Source: Candidatus Sulfobium sp. | GTDB lineage: Bacteria; Nitrospirota; Thermodesulfovibrionia; Thermodesulfovibrionales; UBA6898 | Assembly (NCBI GenBank): GCA_037380845.1 | Contig: JARRRI010000006.1 | Span: 1 to 64,000, forward strand | Length of the DNA stretch: 64,000 bases | Direction: 5' to 3' | Shown here: positions 2,791-57,848 of the stretch, piece after piece | Numbering within the stretch: position 1 is the stretch's first letter | Layout: the number at the start of each line of letters is the position of its first letter | The notes under the pieces: model-generated | Seen by the model: the letters and a program-made list of their open reading frames with translations, nothing else | Databases searched by the model: none | Told to the model about the DNA's origin: nothing | Made by a program: the position numbers and the translations under genes

Positions 2791-2798
2791 AGGGTGAG

Positions 2799-3545: not shown

Positions 3546-3585
3546 CTAGGTAACAATTCCCATGCAAATAGGAAAAACATCCAAT
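3546..3585 (+). promoter_or_regulatory. Two tandem imperfect TAGG-N8-CC(C/A)A boxes, candidate NarL-family regulator sites
   Basis: CTAGG-TAACAATT-CCCAT (3546-3563) and ATAGG-AAAAACAT-CCAAT (3568-3585), 22 bp apart, about 90 bp upstream of the 3678 start. Confidence 0.45.
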
Positions 3586-3677
3586 TGTTCCGGAACGGCG
3601 GAAAGAGTAACCTGAAATCAGAGGGACAGAAAATAAACAGTCAAAGACCCCTGGAGGGTCGGAAAGGAAGGTGGGAG

Positions 3678-4046: not shown

Positions 4047-4112
4047 AAGAATTGATAACAGGGGCTGCAAATGGCAGCCCCTGTTACGTAAAACAGGAAA
4101 CCGGAGGGACCC

Positions 4113-5504: not shown

Positions 5505-5606
5505 GAAGGGTGCGCCGGATGATGCGGACCGAAGAAGCCTTGTCATCTCTATTTCTGAAAATGGCATTTTTGTGAATGGTAAAAGCGGATGTTAAGGAGG
5601 AAGGAC

Positions 5607-13373: not shown

Positions 13374-14270
13374 GTGAGAACATGGCCTGTGAATCTTCGA
13401 GCACCGAATATCGATAAGACTGCTATCAGTCCCTACGACCGTTATTGTGACGGTTATGCCCGTCCAGGTGCGGATGGGAATGGCTATGTATCCGTGGTGA
13501 AGGTCGGTACCGGCACCGTCGTAAAGACTGATGATTTCCTGCTGGATGGTGTACTCGCCTATGACCGGGCCGAGGCCAGCGATGCCTACATTGGACAGAT
13601 CAACATGCAGACCGCCTCATCATTCTGTGGAATTGCCGGCCAGGTTTGGGGTTATGACCTGGCCACAGCGGACGTCATTGCAAGGGGAGAGCAGAAATCG
13701 ATTCTGGAGGTTAAGCAGTATGACTGCTCCGCTCTACCCGTTTATGACGCGCAGCCTTTGATCGACGCGGGCATAGCGCTTTTCGGCACTGAGAAGAACC
13801 GCCGTTTCCCACCGGCTCCGGGTGCCCACGTGCTATGCGCCAATAAGAGCGTGACTGCTCTGCGGCCCAAGGAGGGACCGCTGCAGAAGGGCCAGGCATG
13901 CGGCGTCTGGTGCTCTATCGCTCTTTCCATCGGCAGGGACCGCGATAATGCCGCGGATCTGTTCATCGAGGATGGCGGTTTCTGGACCCAAAACGACAAC
14001 CCGAACGACCTCAAGGCCTTTGTGGAAAAGCACCGTGAGGCGCTGGTATGGTCGGTTGTTGCCTGCGGCAAGTACCAGAACGTGCTCTATGACCGCACTT
14101 ACATCAGCTTTGCTTATACCATCATGAAGCCCGGTGAGGTGGGTACGGCACTCGCCGTCGCGCCATATATAACCCTGGCGCGTGATGCTGTCCCTTCAGG
14201 GGGCTTCAGCAGCCTCAACCGCATGACTCTCTCCGAATGGGCCAGAGAGATGGGGTTTGAGAAAGGCTAA
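13374..14270 (+). CDS. hdcA: Pyruvoyl-dependent histidine decarboxylase proenzyme
   Basis: DKTAISPYDRYCDGY, YDRAE, GQINMQTAS|SFCG self-cleavage site, LFIED; AAGGAGGT RBS before the GTG start. Confidence 0.9.
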   Translation: MRTWPVNLRAPNIDKTAISPYDRYCDGYARPGADGNGYVSVVKVGTGTVVKTDDFLLDGVLAYDRAEASDAYIGQINMQTASSFCGIAGQVWGYDLATADVIARGEQKSILEVKQYDCSALPVYDAQPLIDAGIALFGTEKNRRFPPAPGAHVLCANKSVTALRPKEGPLQKGQACGVWCSIALSIGRDRDNAADLFIEDGGFWTQNDNPNDLKAFVEKHREALVWSVVACGKYQNVLYDRTYISFAYTIMKPGEVGTALAVAPYITLARDAVPSGGFSSLNRMTLSEWAREMGFEKG

Positions 14271-15511: not shown

Positions 15512-18500
15512 TTACGTCTGCTGCTTTGTTTCTGAATCATCGGAGTGTCTCCCGAATCGTCCAAACCGCAATGCCAGAGAGGGAAGGACCAGGAGGTTCA
15601 GCGCCGTTGACGTAACGAGGCCGCCCAGTATGATCTGGGCCATGGGACCTTCTATCTCGCGTCCCGCTGCTCCGCTTCCAAGGGCAAGCGGCAGGAGGCC
15701 AAGCGCCGTAACGGTCGCCGTCATCAGTATCGGGGCGAGCCGCTCCGATGCGCCCCGGACTGCGGTCTCCGGTCCCCAGTCCATTCCTTCGACGTCGACC
15801 AGGTGCTCATAATGGGATATTAGCATGACGGAATTCCGGAGCGTTATCCCGAAAAGGGTCACGAAGCCCACGATTGAGCCTATGGAAAGCACCCCTCCTG
15901 CGGCGAAGGCCACGAAAACGCCGCCGGCCAGGGCAAAAGGCAGGTTAAGAAGTATCAACAAGAGGTTCCTGTAGCTAACGGTCACTATCGAAAGGAGGAT
16001 GATTATTCCCAGGGCCGCGATGGCCGAATGAACCAGGAGGTCTCTTCTTGTGCGGGCCTGCTCCTTTGCGGCACCCGCAATATTGAGATACGTGCCCGCC
16101 GGCAGGTGAAGGCGGGAAACCATCTCCTTCTGAACCTCTGCCACAAAGGAGCCGAGGCTTCTGCCCCGTACCTTGCATGTGATCGTCTGGACACGTCTTG
16201 CGCCCTCGTGCAATATAATAAACCTTGCCGGCATCTCGCGCAGGTTCGCCAGCTGCGAAAGGCTTACGTATGCGCCCTCCGGGTTCCTGAGAGGCAGGTT
16301 TGCCACGTCCGTTATGCTCTTTCTGTTTTTGGGATCGACTATGACCGATACGTTAAAAGCCCTGTTGCCTTGAAATACCTGTCCTACCTTCTTTCCCGCA
16401 AAGGCCGTGTGAATGTCGTCAAGGACCGCCGCGGGCTCAAAACCCCAGCGAGCAAGAGCCCCCTTATCGAGCGTTGCCAGAAGTTCGGGGGCTGAGGGCG
16501 GCGCCTGGAGTCTCACGTCGGCTGCGCCGCGGATGCCGCTTAATATGGCCTCAGCCTCAGCCGCCTTCCTGTCGAGCACGGATAGGTCGTTGCCGTAAAT
16601 GTTTACGGCGACAGGCGCCCTGAAGCCAGAGATGGTCTCATTTATCCTCTCCGTAAGAAAAGTGTCTATTTCGGAGGCCATACCTGGGAATCCAGCTATG
16701 ATGCCTCTTATCTGCCTTCTTGCCCGGTCGAACCCCGATTTGCCGAGAGGCTTCAGCGTAAGATCGAATTCGCCTTCGTTCGCGCCCCTGGCCTCGTCGC
16801 CTTCTATCGTCCTGCCCGCCATCTGGGCGGCGGACCGCACATAGGGGAGCGCCGTCAGCTTGTCCTCCAAAAGGGCCCCGGTCCGCAGGGTCTCCTTAAG
16901 CGAAGTGCCAGGGGCGGTGGTTGTGTGTATTATGAAATTTCCTTCGATCAGCTCCGGCATAAAACGGCCCTCGAGGAACGGAAAGATGACAAGCGTGGCC
17001 GCGATGAGCACGCCAGCCGCCGCCATGACCGATTTCGGCCTTCTTTCTACGGCAAGTATTATCCTCACGTAGTGCCCCTTAATCCAGCGGGCCACGGGCG
17101 GCTCCTCCGCAGGCAGCTCCCCTTTGCCCAGCATCAGGAGCGACAGGGCGGGCGTTACCGTGAGGGCGACCAGAAGCGCAAAGAACCTGCCCGATATCCC
17201 TGTCATGGTGAGCACCGGGATAAAGACCAGCACGACGGCGAATGTGGCGTACACAACGGCGCTCCTCACTTCCACGCTGGCCTTATACACCACCTGCAGC
17301 GCCGGAAGGGGCTCTTTCGCCAGGCGGTTTTCCCTCAGCCGCCTTAATATGTTCTCCACGTCTATAACGGCGTCGTCGACGACCTCTCCTATTGCGATTG
17401 CGAGCCCTCCGATGGTCATGGTGTTTAAGCTCAGGCCGAAATGCTCAAGCACCGTCACCGACCCCAGCAGTGATAGCGGAATGGCGGCGCAGGAAATGGC
17501 AGCAGTCCTCAGATTGAACAGGTAAAGCAAGAGGACGATTACTACAAGAAGCGCACCGATGATGAGGGAGAAGTTAATATTATGGAGCGCGGCTTCTATG
17601 AAGTCCGCTGCCCGGAAGAGCCCTGGATATATAGTTATACCCTGCTCTTCAAGGGTCGGACGGAGTTCCGCAATAGCCTTGTCCAGGCCGCGGGTCACAT
17701 CCAGTGTGTTTGCGCCGTATTGGGCCCAGACCACCAGGAGCGTTCCGGGCTTGCCGTTTATCGTCGCACCGCCGATCCGGGGTGCCGGGGCCTCCGCCAC
17801 ATGGGCGACGTCTCCTAAAACCACGTTTGCCCCTTTTCCATGCTTCAGGACCGCCCCGGCAAGCTCCCCGGCCGTAAGTGACTGCCCCGCGCTCCTGACG
17901 GTTATTCTCTGGTTGGTCCCGTCAATGAATCCCGCACCTTTAACTCCGGTCCCTTTTTTAGCGGCTGATATCACGTCTTCGAGGGAAAGGCCGTACTTTA
18001 TCAGCCTTTCGGGGATGACCTGAATCTGCAGCTCTTTTTCGCCGCCTCCGTATATGTTCACCTGGGCGACGCCGGATACTGCCAGCAAACGCTGCCTGAC
18101 CGTCCAGTCGGCCACGGTTCTTAACTGCATTTGTGAGAGTTTCGTTGAAGTCAGACCGATTTCGATTACGTTTCCAGTGGAGGACGTAAGCGGTTTCATC
18201 TCCGGCGTCACCCCCTCCGGGAGCGCGCCTGTGAGAGTGGAAAGCCGCTCTGCTATCTTCTGCCTGGCAAGGTATACGTCCGTGCCGCTTTTGAACCTGA
18301 CCGTGACGACCGACAGACCCTGCATCGATCTTGACAGGATTGAGGCCAGCCCGCCCAGGCCGGTTACGGCGATTTCCACCGGGCGGGTAATGAGTTCCTC
18401 GGTCTGCTCCGGCGAAAAACCGGGCGCCTCGGAGTTTACCGTTACCTCGGGAGGAGCAAACTCCGGAAAAACGTCATATCTGGCGCCGGTGAGAGAATAG

Positions 18501-18610
18501 ATGCTGTAAACCAGAAACAGCAGGGCAAGAGCTATGATTATACCCCGGCGGCGCAGGGCAAACCGGACGATCGTTCCCAATATGCCGTGGTGCCCGCTCC
18601 CGGCACTCAA
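15512..18610 (-). CDS. CusA/CzcA-family RND permease
   Basis: DVFPEFAPP, GEVVDDAVIDVEN, ERLAPILMTA; apparent short in-frame deletion near 17175. Confidence 0.92.
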   Translation of the reverse strand: MSAGSGHHGILGTIVRFALRRRGIIIALALLFLVYSIYSLTGARYDVFPEFAPPEVTVNSEAPGFSPEQTEELITRPVEIAVTGLGGLASILSRSMQGLSVVTVRFKSGTDVYLARQKIAERLSTLTGALPEGVTPEMKPLTSSTGNVIEIGLTSTKLSQMQLRTVADWTVRQRLLAVSGVAQVNIYGGGEKELQIQVIPERLIKYGLSLEDVISAAKKGTGVKGAGFIDGTNQRITVRSAGQSLTAGELAGAVLKHGKGANVVLGDVAHVAEAPAPRIGGATINGKPGTLLVVWAQYGANTLDVTRGLDKAIAELRPTLEEQGITIYPGLFRAADFIEAALHNINFSLIIGALLVVIVLLLYLFNLRTAAISCAAIPLSLLGSVTVLEHFGLSLNTMTIGGLAIAIGEVVDDAVIDVENILRRLRENRLAKEPLPALQVVYKASVEVRSAVVYATFAVVLVFIPVLTMTGISGRFFALLVALTVTPALSLLMLGKGELPAEEPPVARWIKGHYVRIILAVERRPKSVMAAAGVLIAATLVIFPFLEGRFMPELIEGNFIIHTTTAPGTSLKETLRTGALLEDKLTALPYVRSAAQMAGRTIEGDEARGANEGEFDLTLKPLGKSGFDRARRQIRGIIAGFPGMASEIDTFLTERINETISGFRAPVAVNIYGNDLSVLDRKAAEAEAILSGIRGAADVRLQAPPSAPELLATLDKGALARWGFEPAAVLDDIHTAFAGKKVGQVFQGNRAFNVSVIVDPKNRKSITDVANLPLRNPEGAYVSLSQLANLREMPARFIILHEGARRVQTITCKVRGRSLGSFVAEVQKEMVSRLHLPAGTYLNIAGAAKEQARTRRDLLVHSAIAALGIIILLSIVTVSYRNLLLILLNLPFALAGGVFVAFAAGGVLSIGSIVGFVTLFGITLRNSVMLISHYEHLVDVEGMDWGPETAVRGASERLAPILMTATVTALGLLPLALGSGAAGREIEGPMAQIILGGLVTSTALNLLVLPSLALRFGRFGRHSDDSETKQQT

Positions 18611-19656
18611 TCCTCGTCCTCTTCTTCGCCGCCGCCTGTCGCTTTCGGTATGCTCTCTTCAGAGAGCAGGGCCTGGGCTCCCTTGACCACGAGTTCATCT
18701 CCGGGAGAAAAGCGCCCTGATACGAAGTAGCCTTCATTTAACGGATTCGACGTGGGCACCTGCTCTCTCGCAAAACCCGTTGCGCTTTTTTTGACATAGA
18801 CCCATGCCCTGTCCTGCAGCCATACCACAGCAGAGAGCGGCACAAAAAAGCCTTTCCTGACTCTGCCTGTATGCATCTGTGCCGTCACGTTCATACCGGG
18901 AAGAAGGTTGCCGGAGCTGGAAGAAGCGGCATATATGAAACTTACTCCCTGTATCCTCGGGTCCGTTCTTGTCGCCCGGGAGACAAAGTTCGCGGAGACT
19001 GTGCCCCCCGAGGGAGGCTCTATCCGGATTCTCTTTGCGATCCCCCGGACCGGGAAGGCCGGAGGGACAGTAATCTGCAGAAGGACTTTTCTTGTACCGA
19101 GGACATCCTGTAGCTGGGACGAATAATCGAATATCCATTCCGAGAGGGTGGGGCCCCATTTTACCGCGATCGAATCCTTCGCCGACTGCAAGACGCCTCG
19201 TGCATTGGCCTCCTCGGCCCTGTCGGCTGCAAGCTGCGCTGCGGCAGCCTGAAGCGCCCGGTCCGAGACGTTCTTGGCACTGGCGTTAAGGGTTTTCAGC
19301 CGTTCATACTCCTTTTCAGATGCATTAAGTGCGGCGTTTGCTCTTTCAAGGCCCGTCGTTGCCGCCACATAGGCCCTGCGCGAGGCGTTAATGCCTTCAG
19401 GGTCAAGGACCCTTCCATAGGCCGTCACGCTCATCCGGTGGAGACGCGGTTTCAGCGCCTCCGTAGTTATGCCGCCCGCCTCCTGGGCTTCTTTAGATAT
19501 GGTTACCGTATAAGAGGACTCCGGAACGCCTGTCCGGGCTCCGGGTGATTTTTGGGTATCTTCTCCTTTTACCCCGCTGAGCAGCAGGAACGCGGCGGGG
19601 AGTGCCGTGAAAAGAATAAGAAACGCAAAAAGTCTCCTCGTTCTCCCGCTTTTCAC
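18607..19656 (-). CDS. RND periplasmic adaptor (MFP)
   Basis: N-terminal anchor, helical hairpin, LLPGM, VPLSAVV, VVKGAQALLSEE; 4-bp overlaps with both neighbours. Confidence 0.85.
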   Translation of the reverse strand: MKSGRTRRLFAFLILFTALPAAFLLLSGVKGEDTQKSPGARTGVPESSYTVTISKEAQEAGGITTEALKPRLHRMSVTAYGRVLDPEGINASRRAYVAATTGLERANAALNASEKEYERLKTLNASAKNVSDRALQAAAAQLAADRAEEANARGVLQSAKDSIAVKWGPTLSEWIFDYSSQLQDVLGTRKVLLQITVPPAFPVRGIAKRIRIEPPSGGTVSANFVSRATRTDPRIQGVSFIYAASSSSGNLLPGMNVTAQMHTGRVRKGFFVPLSAVVWLQDRAWVYVKKSATGFAREQVPTSNPLNEGYFVSGRFSPGDELVVKGAQALLSEESIPKATGGGEEEDED

Positions 19657-21053
19657 TTTTTTGTTCCCGCCCCCTGGTAAGAAATCGCCGTCTCAGGGAA
19701 AATATCCTGTCTGTTAAGCGGCTTCTGTACGGCATCCTCCAGCCGCCCCACCGACTCCTGCGCGGTAACAAGGGCATCAAGCCGCGACAGTCTGGCGGTG
19801 ACGAGCTCGATCCTGGCTTCTGTCACCGCAAGAAGATCTGTCTGACCGGCCCTGAACCTCTCCTCAGCCGCCCGGAAAATTTTTCCCTGGCGGGCCAGGA
19901 GAGAATCGGCTGTTTCGAGAAGTTTCAGAGAACCTTTGTAGCCGGCAAAAGCGCGTCCTGTGTCTTCTATGATGCGGGCCTGAAGCGCGATAAACTCCGA
20001 GGCCTTTTCTTTGCGGCGTGCCCGGGCCTCTGCAATCGGACCCTCGTTGCGGTTCAGAAGGGGAAGTATCAATGCCGCTCCGAGTGACCATTCATTGTCA
20101 CCCTGGTCCCAGGTATATGCCGGTCCGAGGTGTATGTCGGGATACTGCCGTGCGATCTCCAGCCGGAGGTCCGCCTGGATTGCCTGGTATTCCGATAGCT
20201 TCGCCAGCAGATCGGCCCTGTTGAGGAGCGCCTCACGGCGGACCTCTGCCGAGTAAAGACCGGCATCCACCTTTTCCATGCTCCCGAAGGAAATATGGAC
20301 CCCCTTGAGTGCTTCTTCGGGAATCCCCATCGAACCGGCGAAGCTTACCCTGGCCTGGATTTCATCCTTACGGACACTGGAAAGGGACAGGGCCGTCTTT
20401 TCCATGGTGATGACCGAGCTTGTCAGCGCATATTGCGATTCTTCTCCGGTTGCGAAACGCTCCCTGAATATGCGGACTATCTTTCTTTGCAGCTCCAGTT
20501 CTTCCTGCAGGATCTGTTCCCTTTTGACGAGAGCGTAAAGGGAAAGCAGATCTTTTCTCAGCCTGCTTCTGACCTGCCACGCCGTATCGGCTATCTCCAT
20601 GCGGGCGGCATCGGAGAGATGGCCGGCGCGGGCAATCCTGTAACCCCTCCTCCCGGCCGTTTCGATGGGAATATCAAGAAAAAATGACAAGGTCCATGGG
20701 GCGAGTCCGCGCGGGTTTGCGTGGTATTGGGGCGTAAATCCGGCGCCGGGATTGGGGCGTTCGCCGGCTGTTATGACCCCTGCTTCCTTCACCTGCCATG
20801 CAGCGCGGGCTACATCGAGGTCCGGGTGATAGTAGAAAGCGGTGAGGGTCAGCATGCGCAAATCCCACGAAGCGGGAGGCCATGGGAATATGGGATGACG
20901 GAGGTTCTTCTCCAGGAACGCCCGCAGCCCGGTGTTGTTTAGTGTACGCCCCTCAAATGCAGACGCCGTCGACGAAGGGTTGAGAGGCTTAGCCTGAAAT
21001 GTTGTACAGCCGGCAAGAAGCACTACAGCTGCAAAAAGGGCGATGTTCCTCAT
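19653..21053 (-). CDS. TolC-family outer-membrane lipoprotein
   Basis: Lipobox LAGC, two OEP-type repeats. Confidence 0.9.
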   Translation of the reverse strand: MRNIALFAAVVLLAGCTTFQAKPLNPSSTASAFEGRTLNNTGLRAFLEKNLRHPIFPWPPASWDLRMLTLTAFYYHPDLDVARAAWQVKEAGVITAGERPNPGAGFTPQYHANPRGLAPWTLSFFLDIPIETAGRRGYRIARAGHLSDAARMEIADTAWQVRSRLRKDLLSLYALVKREQILQEELELQRKIVRIFRERFATGEESQYALTSSVITMEKTALSLSSVRKDEIQARVSFAGSMGIPEEALKGVHISFGSMEKVDAGLYSAEVRREALLNRADLLAKLSEYQAIQADLRLEIARQYPDIHLGPAYTWDQGDNEWSLGAALILPLLNRNEGPIAEARARRKEKASEFIALQARIIEDTGRAFAGYKGSLKLLETADSLLARQGKIFRAAEERFRAGQTDLLAVTEARIELVTARLSRLDALVTAQESVGRLEDAVQKPLNRQDIFPETAISYQGAGTKK

Positions 21054-23234: not shown

Positions 23235-23648
23235 GTGCCGGATGTTCGGTACAGTTACAAAAAAACCGACGCGACGAGGCTGAGGATCCTGATGCTGCTC
23301 ACTAAGAGAGAATTGTGCGTATGTCAGATCATGGGGGTCCTCGGCGTCTCGCAGCCCCTCGTATCCCGCAATCTCCACCTTCTATACGAGGCCGGCTTTC
23401 TCCGGGAGCGTAAGGAAGGGAAACTTGTCTACTATTCTCTGGATAAGGACATGGGACCGGTCAATCGCAGGATTGTGCGTCTGTTGAAGGCCCTCCTGGA
23501 ATCTGATAGGATTCTAGCAAGGGATTTGAAGTCTCTCGGCGAGTGCGAGGAATTTCAGAAAAAAACGGGCAAGTGTGACATGAAAACCTTTTCGGACTTC
23601 ATGAAGAAGAAGAGGAAGAAAGTCGCACGGGAGATGGCAGGTAAGTAA
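23235..23648 (+). CDS. ArsR/SmtB regulator (N-terminus atypical)
   Basis: TRLRILMLL, ELCVC, SQPLVSRNL, GKLVYY. Confidence 0.8.
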   Translation: MPDVRYSYKKTDATRLRILMLLTKRELCVCQIMGVLGVSQPLVSRNLHLLYEAGFLRERKEGKLVYYSLDKDMGPVNRRIVRLLKALLESDRILARDLKSLGECEEFQKKTGKCDMKTFSDFMKKKRKKVAREMAGK

Positions 23649-23653: not shown

Positions 23654-25024
23654 ATGTACAGACGCATTGTTTTCATAACAGTGCTGGCGGTTGCATGCAA
23701 TGCGGTCTGGTTTTCCGCGGCGACCTGGGCTGAGAAGACTCTGACACTCACGGAGGCCGTTCAATATTCGCTGAAGGACAACCCCGGGGTACTTGCCTTC
23801 AGGGAGTCCGTCCTGGCTCAGAAAGAAGATATCGGCATTGCCCGGAGTCTCATGCTGCCGAAGCTCAATTTTGAAGAAAGGTATATGAGGACGAACAACC
23901 CCACTTATGCCTTCATGGCGAAGCTCAACCAGGAGCGTTTTTCCCAGCAGGACTTCGCCATAAGTTCGCTGAACAGCCCCTCGCCGATAAATGACTTCCA
24001 GACGAGTTTTTCCCTTGAGCAGGCGGTCTTCGCACCTAAGGCATACATCGCGCTGGACATGGCGAAGAAAGAGGCCGCGGCCAGGGGGGACGAGTTTGAC
24101 AGGAAAAAGGAAGAGACCGCCTTCCGCGTATTCAAGACGTACCTGGGAGTGCAGACGGCGAAGGCGTATGTGGGCGTTGCCGAGAAGGGCGTCGAGGACG
24201 CAAAGGAACACCGCCGGATCGCCGAATCGCGCTACAGGAACAATCTGGGACTTTATTCCGACGTTCTCAGGGCACAGGTGGCCATGTCTTCGGCGGAGGA
24301 GAAGATGGTTTCCGCCCGAAAGAACCTGGCGGTTGCAAAGAGGGCCCTCGGTCTGATGCTGGGATTGACCGAATCGGTAAATGTAACTGACGAAAGACCT
24401 TCCTTCGAGGTAAGGAATATCGACCACTATTATGACAAGTCGCTCCAGAGAAAAGACCTGCACTCATTGCAGGAGCGTTACAGGAATGCCAGAAACGCCC
24501 TGAAGATGGCGAACGCAGGATACCTGCCGGTTGTGGGAGTGGGGGGGACCTATCAGTTGAATGACCATCGCAGTCCCTTCGCCGGAGAGGGTGACAGTTG
24601 GCAGCTGGTAGCATTTCTGAGGTGGCATATCTTTGACGGAACCAGGCGGGAGCATGAGAGGGAAAAGGCAAAGCACAAAATCGCTGAAACGGGCGAATAT
24701 CTCGACGGGTTCAGGAAGGAATTGCGCTTCAGGGTCTATGATGCTTATCTCGGAGTGGACGAGTCGAAGAAAGGCCTGGAGCTTGCGAAGGCTGCGCTGA
24801 AATCCGCGGAAGAAGGCAGACGGCTCGTCCTGAAGAGATATGAAAACTCGCTTTCTACTATTGTCGACCTGCTCGACGTACAGACGAGTCTCGATGCCGC
24901 ACGGGCCGATGTGGTCAGAAAAGAGGGTGCCTATTTGACGGCGATAGCAAACCTCGGATTCCAGAGCGGAACACTGCTCCATGAACTCGGGGTGGAGGAC
25001 CGGCAAGGACCGAGTGCTGAATAG
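23654..25024 (+). CDS. TolC-family outer-membrane protein
   Basis: Signal peptide, two OEP repeats. Confidence 0.9.
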   Translation: MYRRIVFITVLAVACNAVWFSAATWAEKTLTLTEAVQYSLKDNPGVLAFRESVLAQKEDIGIARSLMLPKLNFEERYMRTNNPTYAFMAKLNQERFSQQDFAISSLNSPSPINDFQTSFSLEQAVFAPKAYIALDMAKKEAAARGDEFDRKKEETAFRVFKTYLGVQTAKAYVGVAEKGVEDAKEHRRIAESRYRNNLGLYSDVLRAQVAMSSAEEKMVSARKNLAVAKRALGLMLGLTESVNVTDERPSFEVRNIDHYYDKSLQRKDLHSLQERYRNARNALKMANAGYLPVVGVGGTYQLNDHRSPFAGEGDSWQLVAFLRWHIFDGTRREHEREKAKHKIAETGEYLDGFRKELRFRVYDAYLGVDESKKGLELAKAALKSAEEGRRLVLKRYENSLSTIVDLLDVQTSLDAARADVVRKEGAYLTAIANLGFQSGTLLHELGVEDRQGPSAE

Positions 25025-25344
25025 AGGAGAAGGCGAACGTGCTGAAATGGTCTATAAATTCGGCAAGCATTAATTCTGGTTCACGTAAACGCGATTTCAG
25101 CCTTAAAAGCTTTTTTAAAAGAAGCAGGATGACCATTTTCATGGACTGTGCGGAGCCTCGGGTTATGGACTTTTTCAGCACGTCCGCCTTCTTATGTCTT
25201 TTTGTGGCGGGATGTAAAAATTGCTTCCACGCCTCCCTTGATGCAGAGAGGAATCTTATCCCTCTCCGGCAAAGAGGGCTTGCCTGCCGTCGGGCAGGGA
25301 CGGGGAGTGTTGCGATGAATGTTAAGTCAATCAGGAGGCTGTCA

Positions 25345-26538
25345 ATGCTGCCGAACAAACTTAATGCGATACCGATAGTTGCCCTTACCCTGGCTATTCT
25401 CCTGGGCGGCTGTAAGGGAAAGGTTGAGCCGGGGACCGCTGAGGTGAAAAGACAGCGGGTTAGCGGCGTGAAGGTGGAGACGATACGGCCCGCCGAGGTC
25501 GACAAGTATTACGAAACCTCGGGGACTGTCATCGCGGACTCCGTAAGCGTTATCTCAAGCAGGATAATGGGTACAATCACTTCGATGAAAGTGAAGGAGG
25601 GCGATAAGGTACGAGCCGGGCAGCTTCTCCTTACAGTGGACAACAGGGACATACAACAGAAGGTCAAGGCTGCAAAAGAAAGCTACGAAGAGGCGAAGAA
25701 GGGACTGGAGGCGGCGAAGGAAAACAGGGACCTGGTCAATATCACTTACAGGAGATACAAGAACCTCTATGACGAAAAGGCGCTCACCGGACAGGAGCTT
25801 GACCAGATCCGGACCAAAAAGAAGGTTGCAGACATTGAATTGGCAAGGGCAAAGGCCGGTGTGAGGCGGGCCGAGGCAGGACTCGGGGAGGCGGAGGTAA
25901 ACCAGGGATTCGGACGCGTGACCGCCCCGACAGCGGGTATTGTTACGAACAAGAACGCAGACGCCGGCAGCATGGCGGTTCCCGGAAACCCTCTGATGAA
26001 TATCGAAGACAATTCGTCCTACAGGCTAGAGATAAAGGGGAACGAGTCTTTATCGGGACGGATTACCGCGGGGATGGAGGCGGACATTTTCATCGGCGCT
26101 CTGGACAGGCATTTCAGGGGGCGGGTAGTAGAGGTTGTCCCTTCCGTGAATCCGGCAAGCAGAAGTTTTGTCGTTAAAATACATCTCAGCGGGGAGGGGC
26201 TCAGAAGCGGCTTTTACGGCAGGGTCTCCATTGCGGTGGGTAAGAAGGAGGTCCTCCTGGTTCCGGCCGGTGCAGTCGTGGAGAGAGGAGAATTGACCGG
26301 CCTTTATACAGTTGGTAATGACAACGTGATTAAGTATACGTTGATCAGGGTCGGGAAGACTTTTGGAGGCAAGGTGGAAGTGCTCTCCGGACTTGAGCCG
26401 GATGACAGGGTGATCGTGGAAGGCATTGACAGGGCCGTCGACGGAGGGCTTTATGTCGGTGAAGTGAAAAGTCCAGGTAATACAACTGAAAAGGCGGGAA
26501 ATCCTTTCAGTATGGAGTTCATGGCTGACGGTGAATAA
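25345..26538 (+). CDS. RND periplasmic adaptor (lipoprotein)
   Basis: AGGAGG RBS before ATG 25345, lipobox LGGC, VKEGDKV, VTAP. The longer ORF-track start runs through intergenic repeats. Confidence 0.88.
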   Translation: MLPNKLNAIPIVALTLAILLGGCKGKVEPGTAEVKRQRVSGVKVETIRPAEVDKYYETSGTVIADSVSVISSRIMGTITSMKVKEGDKVRAGQLLLTVDNRDIQQKVKAAKESYEEAKKGLEAAKENRDLVNITYRRYKNLYDEKALTGQELDQIRTKKKVADIELARAKAGVRRAEAGLGEAEVNQGFGRVTAPTAGIVTNKNADAGSMAVPGNPLMNIEDNSSYRLEIKGNESLSGRITAGMEADIFIGALDRHFRGRVVEVVPSVNPASRSFVVKIHLSGEGLRSGFYGRVSIAVGKKEVLLVPAGAVVERGELTGLYTVGNDNVIKYTLIRVGKTFGGKVEVLSGLEPDDRVIVEGIDRAVDGGLYVGEVKSPGNTTEKAGNPFSMEFMADGE

Positions 26539-26828: not shown

Positions 26829-29800
26829 ATGAATGACCTCGGCATAGCCGGAAAAATCGCCAAGGCGTTTATCAGTTCCAGGCTTACGCCTCTTATCGTA
26901 ATCGCTGCGCTCATCCTCGGGGTTTTTGCGGTCATCTCCACGCCGAGGGAGGAAGAGCCCCAAATACTTGTCCCCATGATTGACGTGATGGTCGCCTATC
27001 CCGGGGCCTCTGCGAAAGAGGTCGAGGAAAGGGTGACGAGTCCCGTCGAGAAACTGATGTGGGAGATCAAGGGGGTCAAGTATGTCTATTCAATGGCAAA
27101 GCCGGGCATGGGGCTGGTTATAGTCAGGTTCGAGGTGGGAGAGGAGATGGAGACGAGCCTGGTGAAGCTCTATAACAAGCTCATGTCGAATTACGATATG
27201 ATCCCGCCGGGTGTCGCCCAGCCTCTTGTAAAGCCGAAATCCATAAACGACGTCCCCATAGCCACATTTACCCTGTGGAGCGACAAATATCACGGGTATG
27301 AACTCAGGCGGGTGGCCGTCGAGGTGTGCAATGAGCTGAAGAAGGACGAGAATGTGTCCGAAACGAGTGTTATCGGGGGACAGAGAAGACAGGTGCGGGT
27401 GGTCTTCGATCCTCTCAGGTTGAGGGCTTACCACACCTCTCCTTTCCAGATCATAGGGGCGCTAAAGAAGGCCAATTTTATTCTTCCGTCCGGCGCGTTT
27501 TCTTCGGATAACAGGGAGTTTCTGGTCGACACAGGTGCCTTCCTCAAGGACTCTGATGAAGTCGGAGACCTCGTCACCGGTGTCCATAATGGGAAGCCTG
27601 TATATCTGAAGGATGTGGCTGACATAAAAGACGGTCCGGAGGAGCCTGCCGATTACGTTTTCATGGGACTGGGCCCTCAAGCGGCAGCAAAGGGCGTCAG
27701 CGCCAAATATTCGAAGTCCGGAGAGTATGAAGCCGTAACGATCACGATGGCGAAGAAGAAGGGCTCCAATGCGACCATAATCGCAGAGGGCGCCCTGCGG
27801 AAGATAAATGCCCTGAAGGGGACGATCATACCCTCCGGCGTGGAGGTTACAACCACACGGAATTACGGGGAGACGGCCAATGAGAAATCGAACGAGCTTC
27901 TCGAACATCTCCTTATCGCGACTATCTCGGTAATAATGCTGATTGCATTGGCTCTGGGCTGGCGGGAAGCGATTGTCGTCGCAGTGGCGGTGCCCGTGAC
28001 ACTGGCCCTCACACTTTTGATCAATTATCTCTATGGCTATACCCTCAACAGGGTGACCCTTTTTGCCCTCATATTCTCGATAGGTATTCTGGTCGATGAT
28101 GCCATAGTCGTTGTCGAGAATATTCACAGGCATTTCAGGATGCACAGGATAAGCAGACTTACCGCCGTGCTGGCTGTGGACGAAGTCGGTAACCCAACGA
28201 TCCTCGCTACGTTCGCGGTCATCGCGGCCCTCATGCCCATGGCCTTCGTGCGGGGGCTCATGGGCCCCTACATGAGGCCCATCCCGGTGGGCGCATCGGC
28301 AGCGATGATCTTTTCATTGCTGATTGCGTTCATCGTCAGTCCATACATGAGTTATCATGCACTCAAGGGTGTCAGGAGGAAAGGGAAGGGCGGGGGAGAA
28401 GGAGATAAAGAGGAGGCGAAGACCTTCCACAAGATTTATGAGAGGACGCTGGGACCGCTCCTCGACAACAAATGGAAGCGGGCCTCAGCACTCGGCGTCG
28501 TTCTCCTCCTGCTGGGCCTTGCCCTGCTCCTCATTCCGCTCAAGGCCGTGGAACTGAAGATGCTTCCTTTCGATAATAAGAGCGAGCTTCAGGTGGTCGT
28601 CAACCTGCCGGAGGACGTGACTCTCGAAGAGAGCGCTGCTCTTGCCCGCGACATGGGGGAATATCTGAAGACAGTGCCAGAGGTAACGGACTACCAGTCC
28701 TACATCGGGACGGCGGCCCCCTTCAATTTCAACGGACTGGTCCGCCATTATTATCTCCGTTCGGGCAGCAATGTCGTAGGTATCCAGGTCAGTTTTGTTC
28801 CCAAAGGCATGAGGAGTGCGCAGAGCCACGCTATCGCGAAGCGGATCAGGCCTTTCCTTCACAAGATCGGTGAAAGGTACAACTCAAAAGTGATAATAGC
28901 CGAGATACCGCCGGGTCCCCCCGTCCTCAGCACTCTTGTGGCGGAGGTATATGGCCCGGACTTGAAGGGCAGAATAGATGTGGCCCGGAAAATCAAGCAT
29001 ATCTTCGAGACTACCGAAGGGGTGGTGGATGTGGACTGGTATGTGGAGGCAAATCAAAGGAAATTCGTCCTCGACGTGGACAAGGAAAAGGCGGCGCAGA
29101 ACGGCGTTACCACGAAAGCCGCTTCGGAGACCCTGAGGACCGTTTTGGGGGGCATGCCAGCGGGCCTCGTCCATTTCGAGAGGGAAAAGGAGCCTGTAGA
29201 GATCCTGCTCAGGGCGCCTCTCCGGGAACGTTCCGGCCTCGCATCCCTGGAAGAGGTTTCGGTGCCGTCGTCAGCGGGCGGATTCATCCCTCTTTCGCAG
29301 CTCGTGAAAGTCCGGAAAGAGATACAGGACAAGACGATTTATCATAAAAACCTGAAGGGCGTAACATATGTCATTGGAGACGTTGCGGGCGCCGCCGAAA
29401 GCCCCGTTTACGCCATACTCAAAATGAAGGACAGGATCGGAAGGATAGCCGTTCCGGGCGGATATAAGCTCAGGCAGTATTATACCGCCCAGCCCTGGCT
29501 TACGGACCATTACGGAATGAAGTGGGACGGTGAATGGCAGATAACGTATGAGGTCTTCAGGGACCTCGGCATTGCCTTCGGGGCCGTACTTATCCTGATC
29601 TACATTCTGGTTGTGGCGTGGTTCAGAAATTTCGTTACACCCCTGATCATAATGGTGCCGATCCCGCTGACGCTCGTGGGGATCCTTCCAGGTCACTGGA
29701 TATTCGGTGCCTTCTTCACCGCCACGTCCATGATCGGCTTCATAGCACTGGCGGGAATAATCGTAAGGAACTCTGTCCTTCTCATCGATTTTGTCGAGAT

Positions 29801-30104
29801 GGAGTGGAGGGACTGCGGCGGGCTGAAAGACGCACTCATCAAGGCCGGGGCGGTGAGGTTCAGACCCATCGTCCTGACGGCGGCCGCGGTAGTCGTCGGC
29901 TCTTTTGTTATGCTCTTCGATCCGATCTTCCAGGGCCTCGCAATATCGATGATGTTCGGTGCGGTCGCTGCAACGGGCCTGACACTTCTGGCAGTGCCTC
30001 TGCTTTACTATGAATTCTTCAAAGACAGGGTCTGCCCCATCAAGGAGGAGGAGTTCGAACTGGAGAAGGAGAGAGAAGAAGAGAAAAAAGAGGGTGAAAA
30101 TTAG
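26829..30104 (+). CDS. AcrB/AcrD/AcrF-family RND permease
   Basis: PREEEPQI, GILVDDAIVVVEN, RFRPIVLT. Confidence 0.93.
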   Translation: MNDLGIAGKIAKAFISSRLTPLIVIAALILGVFAVISTPREEEPQILVPMIDVMVAYPGASAKEVEERVTSPVEKLMWEIKGVKYVYSMAKPGMGLVIVRFEVGEEMETSLVKLYNKLMSNYDMIPPGVAQPLVKPKSINDVPIATFTLWSDKYHGYELRRVAVEVCNELKKDENVSETSVIGGQRRQVRVVFDPLRLRAYHTSPFQIIGALKKANFILPSGAFSSDNREFLVDTGAFLKDSDEVGDLVTGVHNGKPVYLKDVADIKDGPEEPADYVFMGLGPQAAAKGVSAKYSKSGEYEAVTITMAKKKGSNATIIAEGALRKINALKGTIIPSGVEVTTTRNYGETANEKSNELLEHLLIATISVIMLIALALGWREAIVVAVAVPVTLALTLLINYLYGYTLNRVTLFALIFSIGILVDDAIVVVENIHRHFRMHRISRLTAVLAVDEVGNPTILATFAVIAALMPMAFVRGLMGPYMRPIPVGASAAMIFSLLIAFIVSPYMSYHALKGVRRKGKGGGEGDKEEAKTFHKIYERTLGPLLDNKWKRASALGVVLLLLGLALLLIPLKAVELKMLPFDNKSELQVVVNLPEDVTLEESAALARDMGEYLKTVPEVTDYQSYIGTAAPFNFNGLVRHYYLRSGSNVVGIQVSFVPKGMRSAQSHAIAKRIRPFLHKIGERYNSKVIIAEIPPGPPVLSTLVAEVYGPDLKGRIDVARKIKHIFETTEGVVDVDWYVEANQRKFVLDVDKEKAAQNGVTTKAASETLRTVLGGMPAGLVHFEREKEPVEILLRAPLRERSGLASLEEVSVPSSAGGFIPLSQLVKVRKEIQDKTIYHKNLKGVTYVIGDVAGAAESPVYAILKMKDRIGRIAVPGGYKLRQYYTAQPWLTDHYGMKWDGEWQITYEVFRDLGIAFGAVLILIYILVVAWFRNFVTPLIIMVPIPLTLVGILPGHWIFGAFFTATSMIGFIALAGIIVRNSVLLIDFVEMEWRDCGGLKDALIKAGAVRFRPIVLTAAAVVVGSFVMLFDPIFQGLAISMMFGAVAATGLTLLAVPLLYYEFFKDRVCPIKEEEFELEKEREEEKKEGEN

Positions 30105-30171
30105 GAGGGAATGTGGTATAATTAAGAAACAGCGAAACTATGTGGGGACACTAATATGGAGGACGGTTTAA

Positions 30172-30360
30172 ATGTATAACAGGTGTAAATGCGAAAAGTG
30201 TGGCAGTGAATTTGCCACGGTTTTGAAGAATGATCTGGAGCTTCAGAACGAGCCGTGCCCGAAGTGCGGCGAGAAACAGCTGAAGATAACCGGACCTCTC
30301 GGCTTTTACGAGACTAGCAGGCTCTTTTCAGGCGGAGGCTGAAGCCCGCGGGGATGTTAG
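30172..30360 (+). CDS. FmdB-like zinc-ribbon protein, candidate selenoprotein (56 aa to TGA; 62 aa with Sec)
   Basis: GGAGGA RBS, extended -10 TGGTATAAT (30114-30122), CEKC...CPKC; GGG-TGA(30340)-SPRGC-TAG followed by a SECIS-like hairpin. Confidence 0.75.
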
Positions 30361-30388
30361 GCCGGTCCGGCCTGCTTAAAATGAGTGT

Positions 30389-30424
30389 AAGGGCATGCTG
30401 AATTCAGCATGCCCTTTCTTTTTT
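30389..30424 (+). terminator. Rho-independent terminator
   Basis: AAGGGCATGCTG-aatt-CAGCATGCCCTT followed by TCTTTTTT. Confidence 0.8.
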
Positions 30425-30464
30425 CAATAGCGTCTTTCTACTGATGTATAAAAGTCCTCCGGCC

Positions 30465-46730: not shown

Positions 46731-47005
46731 AATCAGGTGGAATGATTTTAGACTGGTGATAGCCTGAAGTCTCACTGTTCAACTCCTTTGCAGTTGGCGC
46801 AAGCCCCTTGTTCTGCTTCCGGATTTCACTGCTTTTTCGGGCCTTCCTAGCATCACTTATGCCCTTATAAATTAATACAATCGGCTAAACCCTTTATTTT
46901 ATATTGAAAATATGTTATTTTTTCTAACTTTATTTGTTTTAGCCGGAAAGCCTGCAGGAGTTTCCGCTTTCATCTAAATTTGTCATGAGAAAGGAGCCCC
47001 CGGGG

Positions 47006-47863
47006 ATGCTGATAATAGGCGAGAAATTGAGCATCATAGCGAAGAGAGTAAGAGAAGCGATGATGAAGAAGGACAAAGGACCGATCCAGGAGATAGCCAC
47101 ACGGCAGTGGAAAGAAGGTTCCGGCATAATCGACGCCAATATCGGACCAGCGGAAGACGGCGGAGAGGATCTGATGCAGTGGATGGTGACGGCGATACAG
47201 GAAGTCGTCCCCCTTCCCGTCTGTCTGGACACAACGAACGCAAGCGCAATCGAGGCGGGACTTAAGGTCCATAACAACGAGTGGGGGCGGCCCTTGATAA
47301 ACTCGACTTCAAACGATCCCGAGAGGTTTCCGATTCTCGAACTTGGAGCAAAATATAACGCTCAGGTTATCGGTCTCACAGTCGGGAAGGGCGGGCTTCC
47401 CGCAGATGCGGAGGAAAGGTGCGGAATAGCGGCGGAGATAATGGCCAGGGCGATGGAATACGGGGTGCCCCTGGAAGACCTTTATCTGGATCCCCTCGTT
47501 CTGCAGATAGCAACTACACAGGACCAGGCAGCGAAGGTCATCGATGCGGTGCGGATGTTCCAGGAGATGAACGAACCGCCGATGAAGACCGTTGTCGGAC
47601 TGAGCAATATTTCCAACGGCTGCCCCAAGCACGTAAGGCCTGTTCTTAACAAATATTACTTCCTGATGCTCCTGAACGCAGGCCTGACAGCGGCAATCGC
47701 CGACGCCCGGGAAATGGCGGAAGCCATGGAAGAGAAGAAGCTGTTCGACGATGTCGCGGCCGGAAAAGATATCGCAGACGCCGGGAAGATGAAAGAAATA
47801 AGGAAGACGATAGATGTGATCATGGGCAATACGCTTTATGCCCATTCATATCTGGAAATGTGA
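47006..47863 (+). CDS. acsE: Methyl-THF:corrinoid/FeS protein methyltransferase
   Basis: MLIIGE, CLDTTN, LINS, LDPLVL, GLSNISNG; operon context. Confidence 0.9.
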   Translation: MLIIGEKLSIIAKRVREAMMKKDKGPIQEIATRQWKEGSGIIDANIGPAEDGGEDLMQWMVTAIQEVVPLPVCLDTTNASAIEAGLKVHNNEWGRPLINSTSNDPERFPILELGAKYNAQVIGLTVGKGGLPADAEERCGIAAEIMARAMEYGVPLEDLYLDPLVLQIATTQDQAAKVIDAVRMFQEMNEPPMKTVVGLSNISNGCPKHVRPVLNKYYFLMLLNAGLTAAIADAREMAEAMEEKKLFDDVAAGKDIADAGKMKEIRKTIDVIMGNTLYAHSYLEM

Positions 47864-47870
47864 GAAAAAC

Positions 47871-48001
47871 AGTGTCAGTGATTAGTGTCAGTGTCAGCAA
47901 CTGACATCGAACTCCAATCACTGCCGCTTTCGTCTAAATAAGACGGTGTCGGTAGTTCTTTCCAGTGTCCTTGACTGACACTGATCACTGGCACTGACAC
48001 T
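47871..48001. repeat. Hexamer-built inverted-repeat element, copy 2
   Basis: AGTGTCAGTGATTAGTGTCAGTGTCAG...CTGACACTGATCACTGGCACTGACACT. Confidence 0.75.
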
Positions 48002-48020
48002 TTAAGTGAGGAGGTTATAG

Positions 48021-48962
48021 ATGGCTTTTACACCGACCAAGGAGACGTATTCCGGAAAGGTATATCCGGTTTCTATCGGGACGGGCGAAAGTGAGGTCAC
48101 TTTCGGCGGAGAGAACGTCCTTCCGTTCCATTCCTTCGAGGGTGAGACCCCGAACGGACCGCTGATCGCTTATGAAATACAGGATGTGCCGCCTTCCGAC
48201 TGGCCGGAGAACGTCAGGAAGCCTTATGAGGCCGTATCAGACGATCCGGTAAAATGGGCCAAGCACTGCCAGGAGGGGCTCAAGGCGAAGGCGATAGCGC
48301 TGCGTCTGACAGGTACGCATCCCGACAGAGAGAACCGCTCTCCGGAAGACGCCACGAAGACCATTCAGGATGTACTCGCTGCGATAAGCGTGCCCCTTAT
48401 CATCCTGGGCAGCAACCATGCCGAGAAGGACTCCGCGGTCCTGGTGGCTGCCTCTGAAGCGGCAAAGGGCAAGAATTGCATTATCGGCAAGGCGCAGGAG
48501 GCAAATTACAAGACTATTGCCGCTGCGGCCATGGCCAACAACCATAAACTCATTGCCATGTCCGAACTCGACATCAACCTCTCGAAGCAGCTGAACATTC
48601 TCATCACCCAGATGGGATTCGAAAAGGAGAGGGTCATCACAGACCCGATGTGTTCGGCCCTGGGATACGGTCTTGAATATACCTATTCGGTGATGGAGCG
48701 GATAAGGCTTGCCGCGCTGACGCAGAACGATGCGATCATGCAGCCTCCGATGATGGGAGACGTTGGCATGTATGTCTGGAAGATCAAGGAAACCCAGGCA
48801 TCTGAAACGGACATGCCGGAGTGGGGCGCCGCAGAGGAGAGGGGAATCGCCTGGGAGGCGGTCACGGCAGCTTCGCTCCTGGCAGCCGGCGCAGAGCTCT
48901 TGATAATGAGACATCCGAAGGCCGTGGAAGCGGTCGGGAATTTCCTGGAAGAACTGGCGTAA
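48021..48962 (+). CDS. acsD: Corrinoid/FeS protein small (delta) subunit
   Basis: DINLSKQLN, LGYGLEYTYSVMERIRLAAL, MRHP. Confidence 0.95.
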   Translation: MAFTPTKETYSGKVYPVSIGTGESEVTFGGENVLPFHSFEGETPNGPLIAYEIQDVPPSDWPENVRKPYEAVSDDPVKWAKHCQEGLKAKAIALRLTGTHPDRENRSPEDATKTIQDVLAAISVPLIILGSNHAEKDSAVLVAASEAAKGKNCIIGKAQEANYKTIAAAAMANNHKLIAMSELDINLSKQLNILITQMGFEKERVITDPMCSALGYGLEYTYSVMERIRLAALTQNDAIMQPPMMGDVGMYVWKIKETQASETDMPEWGAAEERGIAWEAVTAASLLAAGAELLIMRHPKAVEAVGNFLEELA

Positions 48963-49020
48963 GAACCGGCACGGGCCGGTTCCCGGCCCCGCCTTGAGAT
49001 AAGACTGGAGGTATAAGAAG

Positions 49021-50364: not shown

Positions 50365-50404
50365 CGGGAAAGAACTTGCTCTTTATTGTAAGAATTTCCT
50401 GTTA

Positions 50405-50484
50405 GTCATCTCCCGCAATGGCGGGAATCCAATCTTCTTTTTTTCAGGAGATAACGGATTCCCGATTACTGCCTCGGGCATGTC
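50405..50484. repeat. REP-like double-hairpin element
   Basis: GTCATCTCCCGCAATGGCGGGAATCC...GGATTCCCGATTACTGCCTCGGGCATGTC. Confidence 0.65.
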
Positions 50485-50648
50485 CAACAGAGAGATATCT
50501 GATATGGCGCAGTCTTGTGTCGGATAGATAAGGCGATAATCTAACAATTTGATTTTATACAGCAAAAAATTGAAAAATAGAATATTAGTGAGTTAGGATG
50601 GGAGATTCCAGCTTGATGAGCTCCTATCCATAATTAGAGGAGGTCAGG

Positions 50649-52847: not shown

Positions 52848-52965
52848 TTATTGATTAAGGATGACCGGAAATACCCGCATACAGAAATTGAAGAAAAGGG
52901 AGAGCAGAGGCCGAAACGGTTCCTTAACCTTGACCTCTGCCTTGACCTGTCAGTAAGGAGGATAT

Positions 52966-54951: not shown

Positions 54952-55008
54952 AAAAGGATCTGAAATGGTTGGTAAGACATATATGCCCTGTATGTTTTTG
55001 GAGGTTAG

Positions 55009-55494: not shown

Positions 55495-55497
55495 AAG

Positions 55498-57837: not shown

Positions 57838-57848
57838 GGGGAAGTATC

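Follow-up and report, generated by a model that had tools for sequence, protein, structure and literature searches.

Does a small zinc-ribbon gene end at the TGA where annotation closes it, or is that TGA read as selenocysteine (Sec, U)? The gene lies in a 64-kb stretch of Candidatus Sulfobium sp. DNA (contig JARRRI010000006.1, positions 1 to 64,000), the whole of which we call the window. From the ATG at 30172 the frame reads MYNRCKCEKCGSEFATVLKNDLELQNEPCPKCGEKQLKITGPLGFYETSRLFSGGG (MYNRCKCEKCG...CPKCG...LFSGGG), and annotation-style open reading frame (ORF) finders close it at 30342. An earlier note on this DNA had described the ORF, its in-frame TGA, an SPRGC tail behind the TGA and then a TAG stop; all of these are present in the window where it had placed them, and the small-gene observation is confirmed as real. 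The further proposal of that note, that the gene is for a small zinc-ribbon selenoprotein, so far unannotated, with Sec at the UGA, is supported by a TGA that is fixed among related loci, a tail that varies in the manner of coding sequence, a variable stop behind it and a covarying hairpin. Judged from these comparisons, the gene very probably encodes a genuine selenoprotein dependent on a Sec insertion sequence (SECIS), with a predicted length of 62 amino acids (aa) and not the 56 aa that gene callers give it.

Conservation of the TGA and of the tail codons

A scan of one genome per species in GTDB returned 50 loci (L001-L050), of which L001-L038 were kept as orthologues. These come from Nitrospirota/Thermodesulfovibrionales metagenome-assembled genomes (MAGs) and share 59-95% aa identity with the window protein, the closest (about 94% identity) being from Candidatus Sulfobium sp. 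Two groups were dropped from the counts: L039-L046 from Desulfovibrio, which are FmdB proteins of the ordinary kind, lacking a TGA and ending in long Ser/Gly/Ala tails, and L047-L050, which are unrelated zinc-finger matches. Counts out of 39 refer to the window plus L001-L038.

The codon after the glycines is TGA in all 39 sequences. The true stop six codons on is TGA in 17, TAA in 15 and TAG in 7, a spread that resembles the stops of 45 window genes (TGA 18, TAA 17, TAG 10). A TGA that stays fixed while the stop six codons on varies is unlike an ordinary stop, and since TGA does serve as the ordinary stop of 18 of the 45 window genes, a genome-wide reassignment of the codon is excluded.

The codons between TGA and true stop were counted in 38 rows, L016 being set aside for its insertion. 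The residues S, P, R, G and C are kept in 36, 38, 36, 37 and 38 rows respectively (185 of 190 cells), and they are written with 17 synonymous codons: AGC and AGT for Ser, CCG, CCC and CCT for Pro, TGT and TGC for Cys, all four of GGA, GGG, GGT and GGC for Gly, and six for Arg (CGG, AGA, AGG, CGC, CGT and CGA), which amounts to a CGN/AGR switch. Pairwise codon differences in the tail are 90% synonymous in frame (1586 synonymous versus 182 non-synonymous); the same bases read in the other two frames give 157/1522 and 222/1422 (9-13%), and the gene body gives 5079/7982 (39%). Furthermore, L016 carries an in-frame 3-nt (one-codon) insertion and reads SPSGGC, and the divergent tails NPYSC (L014) and NPWGC (L031) retain Pro and the terminal Cys. 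The earlier note had named homologues that stop here with TAA or TAG and lack a conserved tail as the pattern that would speak against its proposal; what we found is TGA in 39/39 with a tail of coding type.

A search of 5.8 billion proteins gave 17 homologues of the read-through product, with source names of hypothetical, 'HypA/HybF', 'RPC12/RpoP' and 'nucleic acid-binding Zn-ribbon'. All 17 end exactly at ...LFSGGG, which is the signature of truncation at a common TGA. We also built a profile of the 39 read-through proteins in which C stands in for Sec, and searching it against 1.84 billion representative proteins gave 28 matches at E <= 0.001. The family members among these end at GG or GGG, and the matches that reach the tail positions (P0023, P0038, P0040 and P0044) were rejected as unrelated proteins.

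More distant small CxCxxC...CPxCG zinc ribbons were seen as well, with poly-Gly ends such as GGGGG, GGSGGG and FGGG (P0027, P0029, P0030, P0032, P0033 and P0041) or GGGSG (P0047). Four of these seven relatives carry a source name, all four from Nitrospirota MAGs, and 'RNA polymerase subunit P' is the annotation given to some. These relatives may be further members cut at a Sec-UGA. Every copy with a predicted protein that we saw, the 17 homologues and the distant relatives alike, is annotated as truncated, 'hypothetical' or 'HypA/RpoP-like', which points to a blind spot of annotation pipelines.

A covarying hairpin around the true stop

Behind the TGA the sequence AGGCC-GGUCC-GGCCU (30359-30373) can fold into a stem, 30359-30363 with 30369-30373, under the apical loop GGUCC (30364-30368). 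ViennaRNA draws it with seven pairs (30358-30364 with 30368-30374). For the window sequence the minimum free energy (MFE) is -10.3 kcal/mol when the hairpin is folded by itself and -12.8 kcal/mol when the fold takes in the 41 nt from the UGA onwards. RNAalifold run on the alignment recovers the same helix, with its start inside the true stop codon and a GGUCN loop at its tip. Of the cells in this helix 90.1% pair, its covariation score is attained by 0 of 500 shuffles, and shifting the partner by one column lowers the pairing to about 50%. At pair 32:42, 32 distinct rows have A-U and 5 have G-C; at pair 29:45, which joins the second base of the stop codon to the 3' arm, the counts are A-U 15, G-C 8 and G-U 5, and these are compensatory changes. 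A mini-hairpin GGY-UGAA-GCC around the UGA, also given by RNAalifold, was not counted, since it has three pairs only and its variation tracks codon wobble.

The bacterial SECIS (bSECIS) consensus, as set out in the relevant part of PMC13188914, has a loop of 3-9 nt, a stem of 4-16 bp, a G in the first two loop positions (G[G/U]), a distance of 16-37 nt from the UGA and an MFE <= -7.5 kcal/mol. The family hairpin falls within these ranges with a loop of 4-5 nt, a stem of 5-7 bp and a spacing of 21-25 nt. Its loop begins GGU in 35 of 39 sequences and A/C-G-G/U in the remaining four, so that G followed by G or U is found at the first loop positions in 39/39. An MFE <= -7.5 kcal/mol was obtained for 7 of 8 sequences folded.

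The earlier note had likened the element to the Escherichia coli fdhF SECIS. In common with that element and with the bacterial consensus, the hairpin lies just 3' of the UGA and presents G and U in a small apical loop, as in elements to which SelB binds. The loop does start 21 nt after the UGA, as the note said; the bulged U that it drew fared less well, being drawable in the window's own clade only and not conserved in the family. For the fdhF element PMC8659212 reports, in the section that concerns us, that SelB needs the bulged U17 and that the upper hairpin lies 11 nt from the UGA, whereas the family consensus stem has no bulge, starts 15-16 nt after the UGA and contains the true stop. 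With the true stop in its 5' arm, the element is essentially a bacterial SECIS of the 3' untranslated region (UTR), and a compact natural SECIS of this kind might serve for C-terminal Sec tagging. In the 17 genes whose true stop is TGA too (e.g. L004 6184-6186), that stop lies inside the SECIS stem, and the Sec-UGA and the stop-UGA, 18 nt apart, would be told apart by spacing alone.

The predicted protein

The 62-aa product comprises a Cys4 zinc ribbon, an extra cysteine (Cys5) and the tail GGG-U57-SPRG-C62. C5, C7, C10, C29, C32, U57, P59 and C62 are invariant in 39/39. The knuckles, CxxCG and CPxCG, suit a rubredoxin as well as a zinc ribbon. With Pfam Zn_ribbon_8 (PF09723) the score is 24.3 bits, where the cut-off is 34.4, and with TIGR02605 it is 23.2 bits, where the cut-off is 31.3; some relatives carry a precomputed PF09723 label; on these scores the protein is best called FmdB-like rather than FmdB-family. 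An AF2 model from the 39-row alignment has a mean predicted local distance difference test score (pLDDT) of 78.4, with 86-89 over residues 1-40 and 77-89 over residues 1-53. Residues 54-62 have pLDDT below 50, which fits a flexible C-terminal arm. Foldseek gave no match in the Protein Data Bank (PDB) at E <= 0.001, the best being generic zinc knuckles (HypA, MCM, rubredoxin); a PDB sequence search gave nothing below E = 0.045, and the ESM Atlas gave only unnamed small-protein clusters with chance-level scores. No signal peptide is evident by eye, and hence the protein is taken to be cytoplasmic.

Promoter, leader and terminator

The promoter, ribosome-binding site (RBS) and terminator of its own that the earlier note had assigned to the gene all correspond to sites in the window: a promoter-like site, GGAGGA and an intrinsic terminator. 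The coordinates of these and the other features are collected in the table. Promoter-like sites were found twice in the scan against 0.4 expected, and a TATAAT-like -10, often TG-extended, occurs at the equivalent place in 39/39 sequences, with 29 of the 39 fitting TGNTANAAT. Given this conservation, the small gene is an independently expressed, maintained unit. GGAGG-like sites were seen by eye in most aligned upstream rows of the orthologues. Terminator-like sites in the scan number 1 against 1.1 expected, and in many of the 38 loci a GC-rich hairpin followed by a T run is visible downstream.

At a fixed spacing after the -10 there is a conserved leader motif with a family consensus of about YAA-N7-YG[C/A]AAC[A/T]A, also written TAAGAAACAnTGCAAC(A/T)A and in orthologue rows often extended as ...AATGAAAC. 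It is single in the window (one match in a pattern search, 0.02 expected) and may act as an operator or as an element of the 5' UTR. We looked for an ArsR operator shared between the ArsR promoter upstream and the small-gene promoter and found none.

Table. Features of the small gene and of the efflux operon upstream of it, with positions in the window
Feature	Position	Strand	Basis
ArsR/SmtB metalloregulator, ELCVC motif	23235-23648	+	Pfam/NCBIfam scans, sequence
Outer-membrane factor	23654-25024	+	Pfam/NCBIfam scans
Membrane-fusion protein	25039-26538	+	Pfam/NCBIfam scans
Resistance-nodulation-division (RND) permease, directly upstream of the small gene	26829-30104	+	Pfam/NCBIfam scans
Promoter: GTGAAA (-35-like), 17-nt spacer, TG-extended TATAAT (-10 at 30117-30122)	30094..30122	+	Consensus scan, 10/12 matches plus TG
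Conserved leader / transcription-start motif TAAGAAACAGCGAAACTA, directly 3' of the -10	30123..30140	+	-10-anchored rows of 39 sequences
RBS GGAGGA, 8-9 nt 5' of the ATG	30158..30163	+	Read off the sequence
Full coding sequence, predicted 62-aa product, including the TAG stop	30172..30360	+	Translation with TGA as U; 38 orthologous loci read likewise
Cys4 zinc-ribbon/rubredoxin-like core: C7xxC10G (30190-30201), C29PxC32G (30256-30267), extra Cys5 (30184-30186)	30184..30267	+	
In-frame TGA, read as putative U57	30340..30342	+	TGA in 39/39 sequences
Tail codons S58-P59-R60-G61-C62 (AGC CCG CGG GGA TGT)	30343..30357	+	Coding-type conservation across loci
True stop TAG	30358..30360	+	Same frame, inside the 5' arm of the hairpin
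SECIS-like hairpin holding the true stop in its 5' arm	30358..30374	+	RNAalifold, covariation
Rho-independent terminator: 12-bp stem (30389-30416), then T run	30389..30426	+	Terminator scan

Proposed mechanism and the genomic neighbourhood

If the gene encodes a selenoprotein, SelB-GTP-Sec-tRNA(Sec), tethered to the hairpin with its GGUCN loop 21-25 nt downstream, would insert Sec at UGA57, and five more codons (S-P-R-G-C) would then be translated. With the true stop inside the 5' arm, the ribosome would have to melt the SECIS to reach it. In the protein the tri-glycine hinge would join the knuckle domain to a disordered tail, U57-S-P-R-G-C62. Sec57 and Cys62 on this arm could cycle between selenol/thiol and selenenylsulfide, as a swinging redox arm, or could chelate soft metal(loid)s, with Cys5 or the knuckle domain as a possible partner site. 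A protein of 62 aa with a Sec/Cys arm beside a metal knuckle would be an attractive minimal system for selenol chemistry.

The neighbourhood bears on the choice between these two roles. As the earlier note had it, an ArsR-RND operon lies beside the gene: four genes, those for ArsR, outer-membrane factor, membrane-fusion protein and RND permease, stand upstream. The window ArsR has an ELCVC motif, which we take to be typical of thiophilic metal(loid) sensors, and it also has two C-terminal cysteines (GECEE...GKCD). Upstream genes were surveyed in 35 of the 38 loci, since L019, L027 and L029 end without upstream sequence. An RND gene is directly upstream in 22 of the 35, the fragmented copy of L004 included. 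That copy (2663-5918) is split over several ORFs, with a best high-scoring segment pair of 335 aa and a separate 224-aa C-terminal fragment, and it is either a pseudogene or an assembly error. L014 and L031 have ArsR as the immediate upstream neighbour of the small gene, and in L007 and L008 the order is ArsR, a Fer4_5 polyferredoxin and then the small gene. In L034 a Trx-like protein and a CcdA/DsbD-type membrane protein (4843-5891) stand between the RND and small genes, as they do, assigned by position only, in L035 and L036; L037 has the same pair (4835-5883) directly upstream and no RND match. Neighbours of this kind, found in one clade and including in the CcdA/DsbD-type protein a transmembrane thiol-disulfide transporter, hint at a thiol-redox connection.

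We weakly prefer a role in the handling of thiophilic metal(loid)s or chalcogens, by a slight degree, to one in general redox. Three points weigh against this functional part. Unrelated or divergent genes lie upstream in five loci (L009, L011, L020, L028 and L038). Synteny extends broadly over the region, from the pseudouridine synthase and ArsR to RluB and AspRS, with RluB-like and AspRS genes downstream at 0.1-5.8 kb in 15 loci, so the linkage to ArsR and RND may reflect descent and not function. Lastly, the functional part is drawn from the neighbourhood only. It is a tangible possibility, though we lean away from it, that the selenoprotein has nothing to do with metals or the efflux operon and works instead in general thiol/selenol redox, in regulation or as a device for selenium status with two isoforms, of 56 aa after termination at the UGA and of 62 aa after Sec insertion. 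A conserved promoter and terminator belonging to the gene itself would suit such a role, as would the five loci with unrelated upstream genes, the broad synteny and the Trx-like and CcdA neighbours of L034 and L037, which point to thiol redox. Set against it is the observation that ArsR stays upstream where RND does not, adjacent in L014 and L031 and with one ferredoxin gene between in L007 and L008, although this is weak either way.

A bolder reading, which we consider unlikely, would make UGA57 a selenium-supply switch in a Sec-only family that has no Cys form at all. With selenium the 62-aa U-x4-C form would be made and without it the 56-aa zinc ribbon, almost whole but for the arm, and either the isoform ratio or the chalcogen or metal(loid) adduct of the arm would feed the adjacent ArsR and the operator-like leader. 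The protein would then be a sensor-chaperone dedicated to selenium or a metalloid and not an enzyme, and the poly-Gly Nitrospirota relatives would be hidden members of the family.

The locus holds two RND systems back to back. A second efflux operon on the opposite strand (15512-21053, -) encodes an outer-membrane factor, a protein of 349 aa to which Pfam gives no clear match, and an RND permease that scores 639 bits to the CusA/CzcA heavy-metal family, for which the cut-off is 701.

Decoding of the UGA

Sec use by this class of bacteria is documented in the literature. In the passages relevant here, complete selA-D is reported in all selC*-bearing genomes, Thermodesulfovibrio among them (PMC5389517), Sec-containing MccSep homologues with SECIS-like elements are described in Nitrospirota, mainly Thermodesulfovibrionia (PMC13510729), and selC nested in selB is recorded for Nitrospirae (PMC13188914, PMC9312934). 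Among the papers covered by a full-text search, none joins 'Sulfobium' with seleno- terms.

Several observations weigh against reading the UGA as Sec, and we gather them here. Neither the 64-kb window nor the 38 flanks yielded selA, selB, selC, selD or a tRNA-Sec. Scripts that looked in the window for frames interrupted by TGA, and in both window and loci for SECIS-like loops behind an in-frame TGA, found no other selenoprotein genes, only the small zinc-ribbon family plus a few short chance matches. No homologue with a Cys codon at the Sec position was found among the 17 word-index matches or among the 28 profile matches, and the tBLASTn-type check for such a Cys that the earlier note had suggested thus came out empty among the proteins searched. 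The Sec/Cys pair on which pipelines usually rely is hence lacking, and methods that require a Cys homologue would miss this family.

The hairpin and the sample have limits of their own. In the window sequence alone the stability of the hairpin is not significantly above that of shuffles, of which 131 of 200 (41-nt stretch) and 9 of 200 (24-nt hairpin) fold as well or better; because the single-sequence fold is no better than chance, support for the element rests on the comparison with the 38 related loci. The L014 hairpin, at -6.8 kcal/mol, misses the -7.5 threshold. No Rfam family reaches its gathering threshold in the window, and around the gene there are only sub-threshold chance matches, mostly to the terminator. 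The 39 sequences share a phylogeny, so that counts and pairwise differences are not independent events. Finally, the Pro and Gly codons of the tail are able to form a small CCC/GGG hairpin, and part of the tail conservation could therefore lie at the level of RNA.

The comparative evidence shows translation through the UGA, not which residue enters. It would thus also suit translation of the UGA with a residue other than Sec, or with such a residue beside Sec, either as Cys by a SelB-dependent tRNA(Cys) of the selC* type or through near-cognate read-through stimulated by the hairpin, which would give a C/W-x4-C tail. We think this quite unlikely. The same work that describes selC* tRNA(Cys) genes in Thermodesulfovibrio and in probable Nitrospirae contigs also finds, in the part concerned with these genomes, that they carry the full Sec apparatus, so that Sec insertion would still be available (PMC5389517). 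Were Cys functional, UGY would be expected in some of the 39 lineages, and 0/39 have it. The hairpin, moreover, matches the SelB-type SECIS consensus.

It is very improbable that the UGA is a real stop behind a 56-aa protein ending in GGG, with the conserved 35 nt downstream acting as non-coding RNA (a hairpin for stability, attenuation or protein binding) that looks like codons by chance. For this reading speak the GGG end given by all gene callers, the real conservation of the hairpin as a structure, the CCC/GGG mini-hairpin, by which some bases of the tail could be constrained, and the lack of any Sec machinery seen in the window. Against it, six positions of the 15-nt tail vary clearly, and these are the five third-codon positions and the first position of Arg; three further positions vary in one or two rows only and non-synonymously. 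The L016 insertion is of 3 nt and not 1 or 2, Cys62 and Pro59 are kept even in the NPYSC and NPWGC tails, and the Gly third position that the mini-hairpin requires to pair is A7/G6/T12/C13. Nor would an ordinary stop remain TGA in 39/39 while the next stop cycles through all three.

Other features of the window

tRNA scans gave no tRNA in the window and none in the 38 loci except a tmRNA in L037. Its gene (6804-7148, -; tag ANNELALAA) is found downstream, at about 0.6 kb from the small gene. A Wood-Ljungdahl cluster occupies 46985-60501, with a pterin-binding methyltransferase, CdhD-like corrinoid protein subunits, ACS/CODH beta and Prismane/CODH; after it come NuoE-like, NuoF-like (CBS domains), ferredoxin and NuoG/Fdh-like genes, the last of 673 aa and uninterrupted. 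At 4113-6350 a multihaem c-type cytochrome (463 aa, DmsE/decahaem-like, below the cut-off) adjoins a cytochrome b (formate dehydrogenase gamma-like). The NuoG/Fdh-like and cytochrome genes of the window were rejected as selenoprotein candidates because their frames are uninterrupted, and for the cytochrome at 4113-6350 an MccSep-type selenoprotein was rejected in particular, there being no in-frame TGA. A pyruvoyl-type histidine decarboxylase (PF02329, E = 1e-139) is encoded at 13374-14270.

Comparison with known selenoproteins

The selenoprotein reading of the small gene can be set beside the families already described. NCBIfam release 20.0 holds no selenoprotein model that covers this family, and among the entries compared in Table 1 of PMC13188914, a catalogue said to hold 119 selenoprotein families/subfamilies, there is no zinc ribbon with a C-terminal U-x4-C. 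Full-text searches on selenoproteins with FmdB, zinc ribbon, Nitrospirota and dual CXXC gave no description of the family; supplements lay outside this search, and an earlier mention in Haft & Tolstoy 2025 is possible.

Among the closest by type are the FmdB-family (TIGR02605/PF09723) selenoproteins predicted from the GOS (Global Ocean Sampling) metagenome, in which, by the account in the pertinent part of PMC2398784, Sec replaces a knuckle Cys (CxxU/UxxU), with 2 Sec forms against 807 Cys homologues; they are entered as 'UxxU' in Table 1 of PMC13188914. The earlier note was correct that Sec variants of FmdB-like proteins have been reported, but there the Sec lies inside the CxxC knuckle and not in a C-terminal tail (PMC2398784). 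Both are small proteins with two CxxC knuckles, a weak match to the same models and a predicted Sec. The window family differs in having Cys codons at C7, C10, C29 and C32 in 39/39, its Sec57 in the tail after GGG, no Cys form found and scores below both cut-offs.

Nearest in name among the catalogue entries is the dual CXXC motif small (seleno)protein NF041197, listed as OS_HP3 and 'hypothetical protein DW' with the motifs RxU/GxU (PMC13188914, PMC12013277); the passage on DW in PMC12013277 places it in Desulfosarcina and records Cys homologues. The likeness is one of name and motif only: a small protein, two CXXC motifs and a Sec preceded by G-x. In the model comparison, NF041197 does not appear among the 16-17 families that match the window protein at E <= 1.

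An analogy, though not a homology, may be drawn with mammalian thioredoxin reductase, a large flavoenzyme with a C-terminal Gly-Cys-Sec-Gly arm in which Cys and Sec are adjacent. Both place a Sec/Cys redox pair, putative in our case, on a flexible C-terminal extension after glycine; the pair is adjacent there and U-x4-C here.

In the names of C-terminal-Sec families, 'star' stands for the stop codon. Those of Haft and co-workers include UXX-star 1 and 2, KCU-star and SaoC, a Cys-Cys-COOH selenoprotein; in the text that treats them roles as metal or substrate ligands are suggested (PMC13188914). The window family resembles them in having its Sec a few residues from the C-terminus, and with Sec so placed the SECIS must lie largely beyond the stop codon. 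It differs in domains and motifs, in having no NCBIfam match and in a Sec that stands six residues from the end and is paired with a terminal Cys. Our data support a previously unlisted family of small zinc-ribbon selenoproteins of Nitrospirota. It would add a well-supported family to the bacterial selenoproteome, from the Nitrospirota class Thermodesulfovibrionia, which is important in sulfur cycling.

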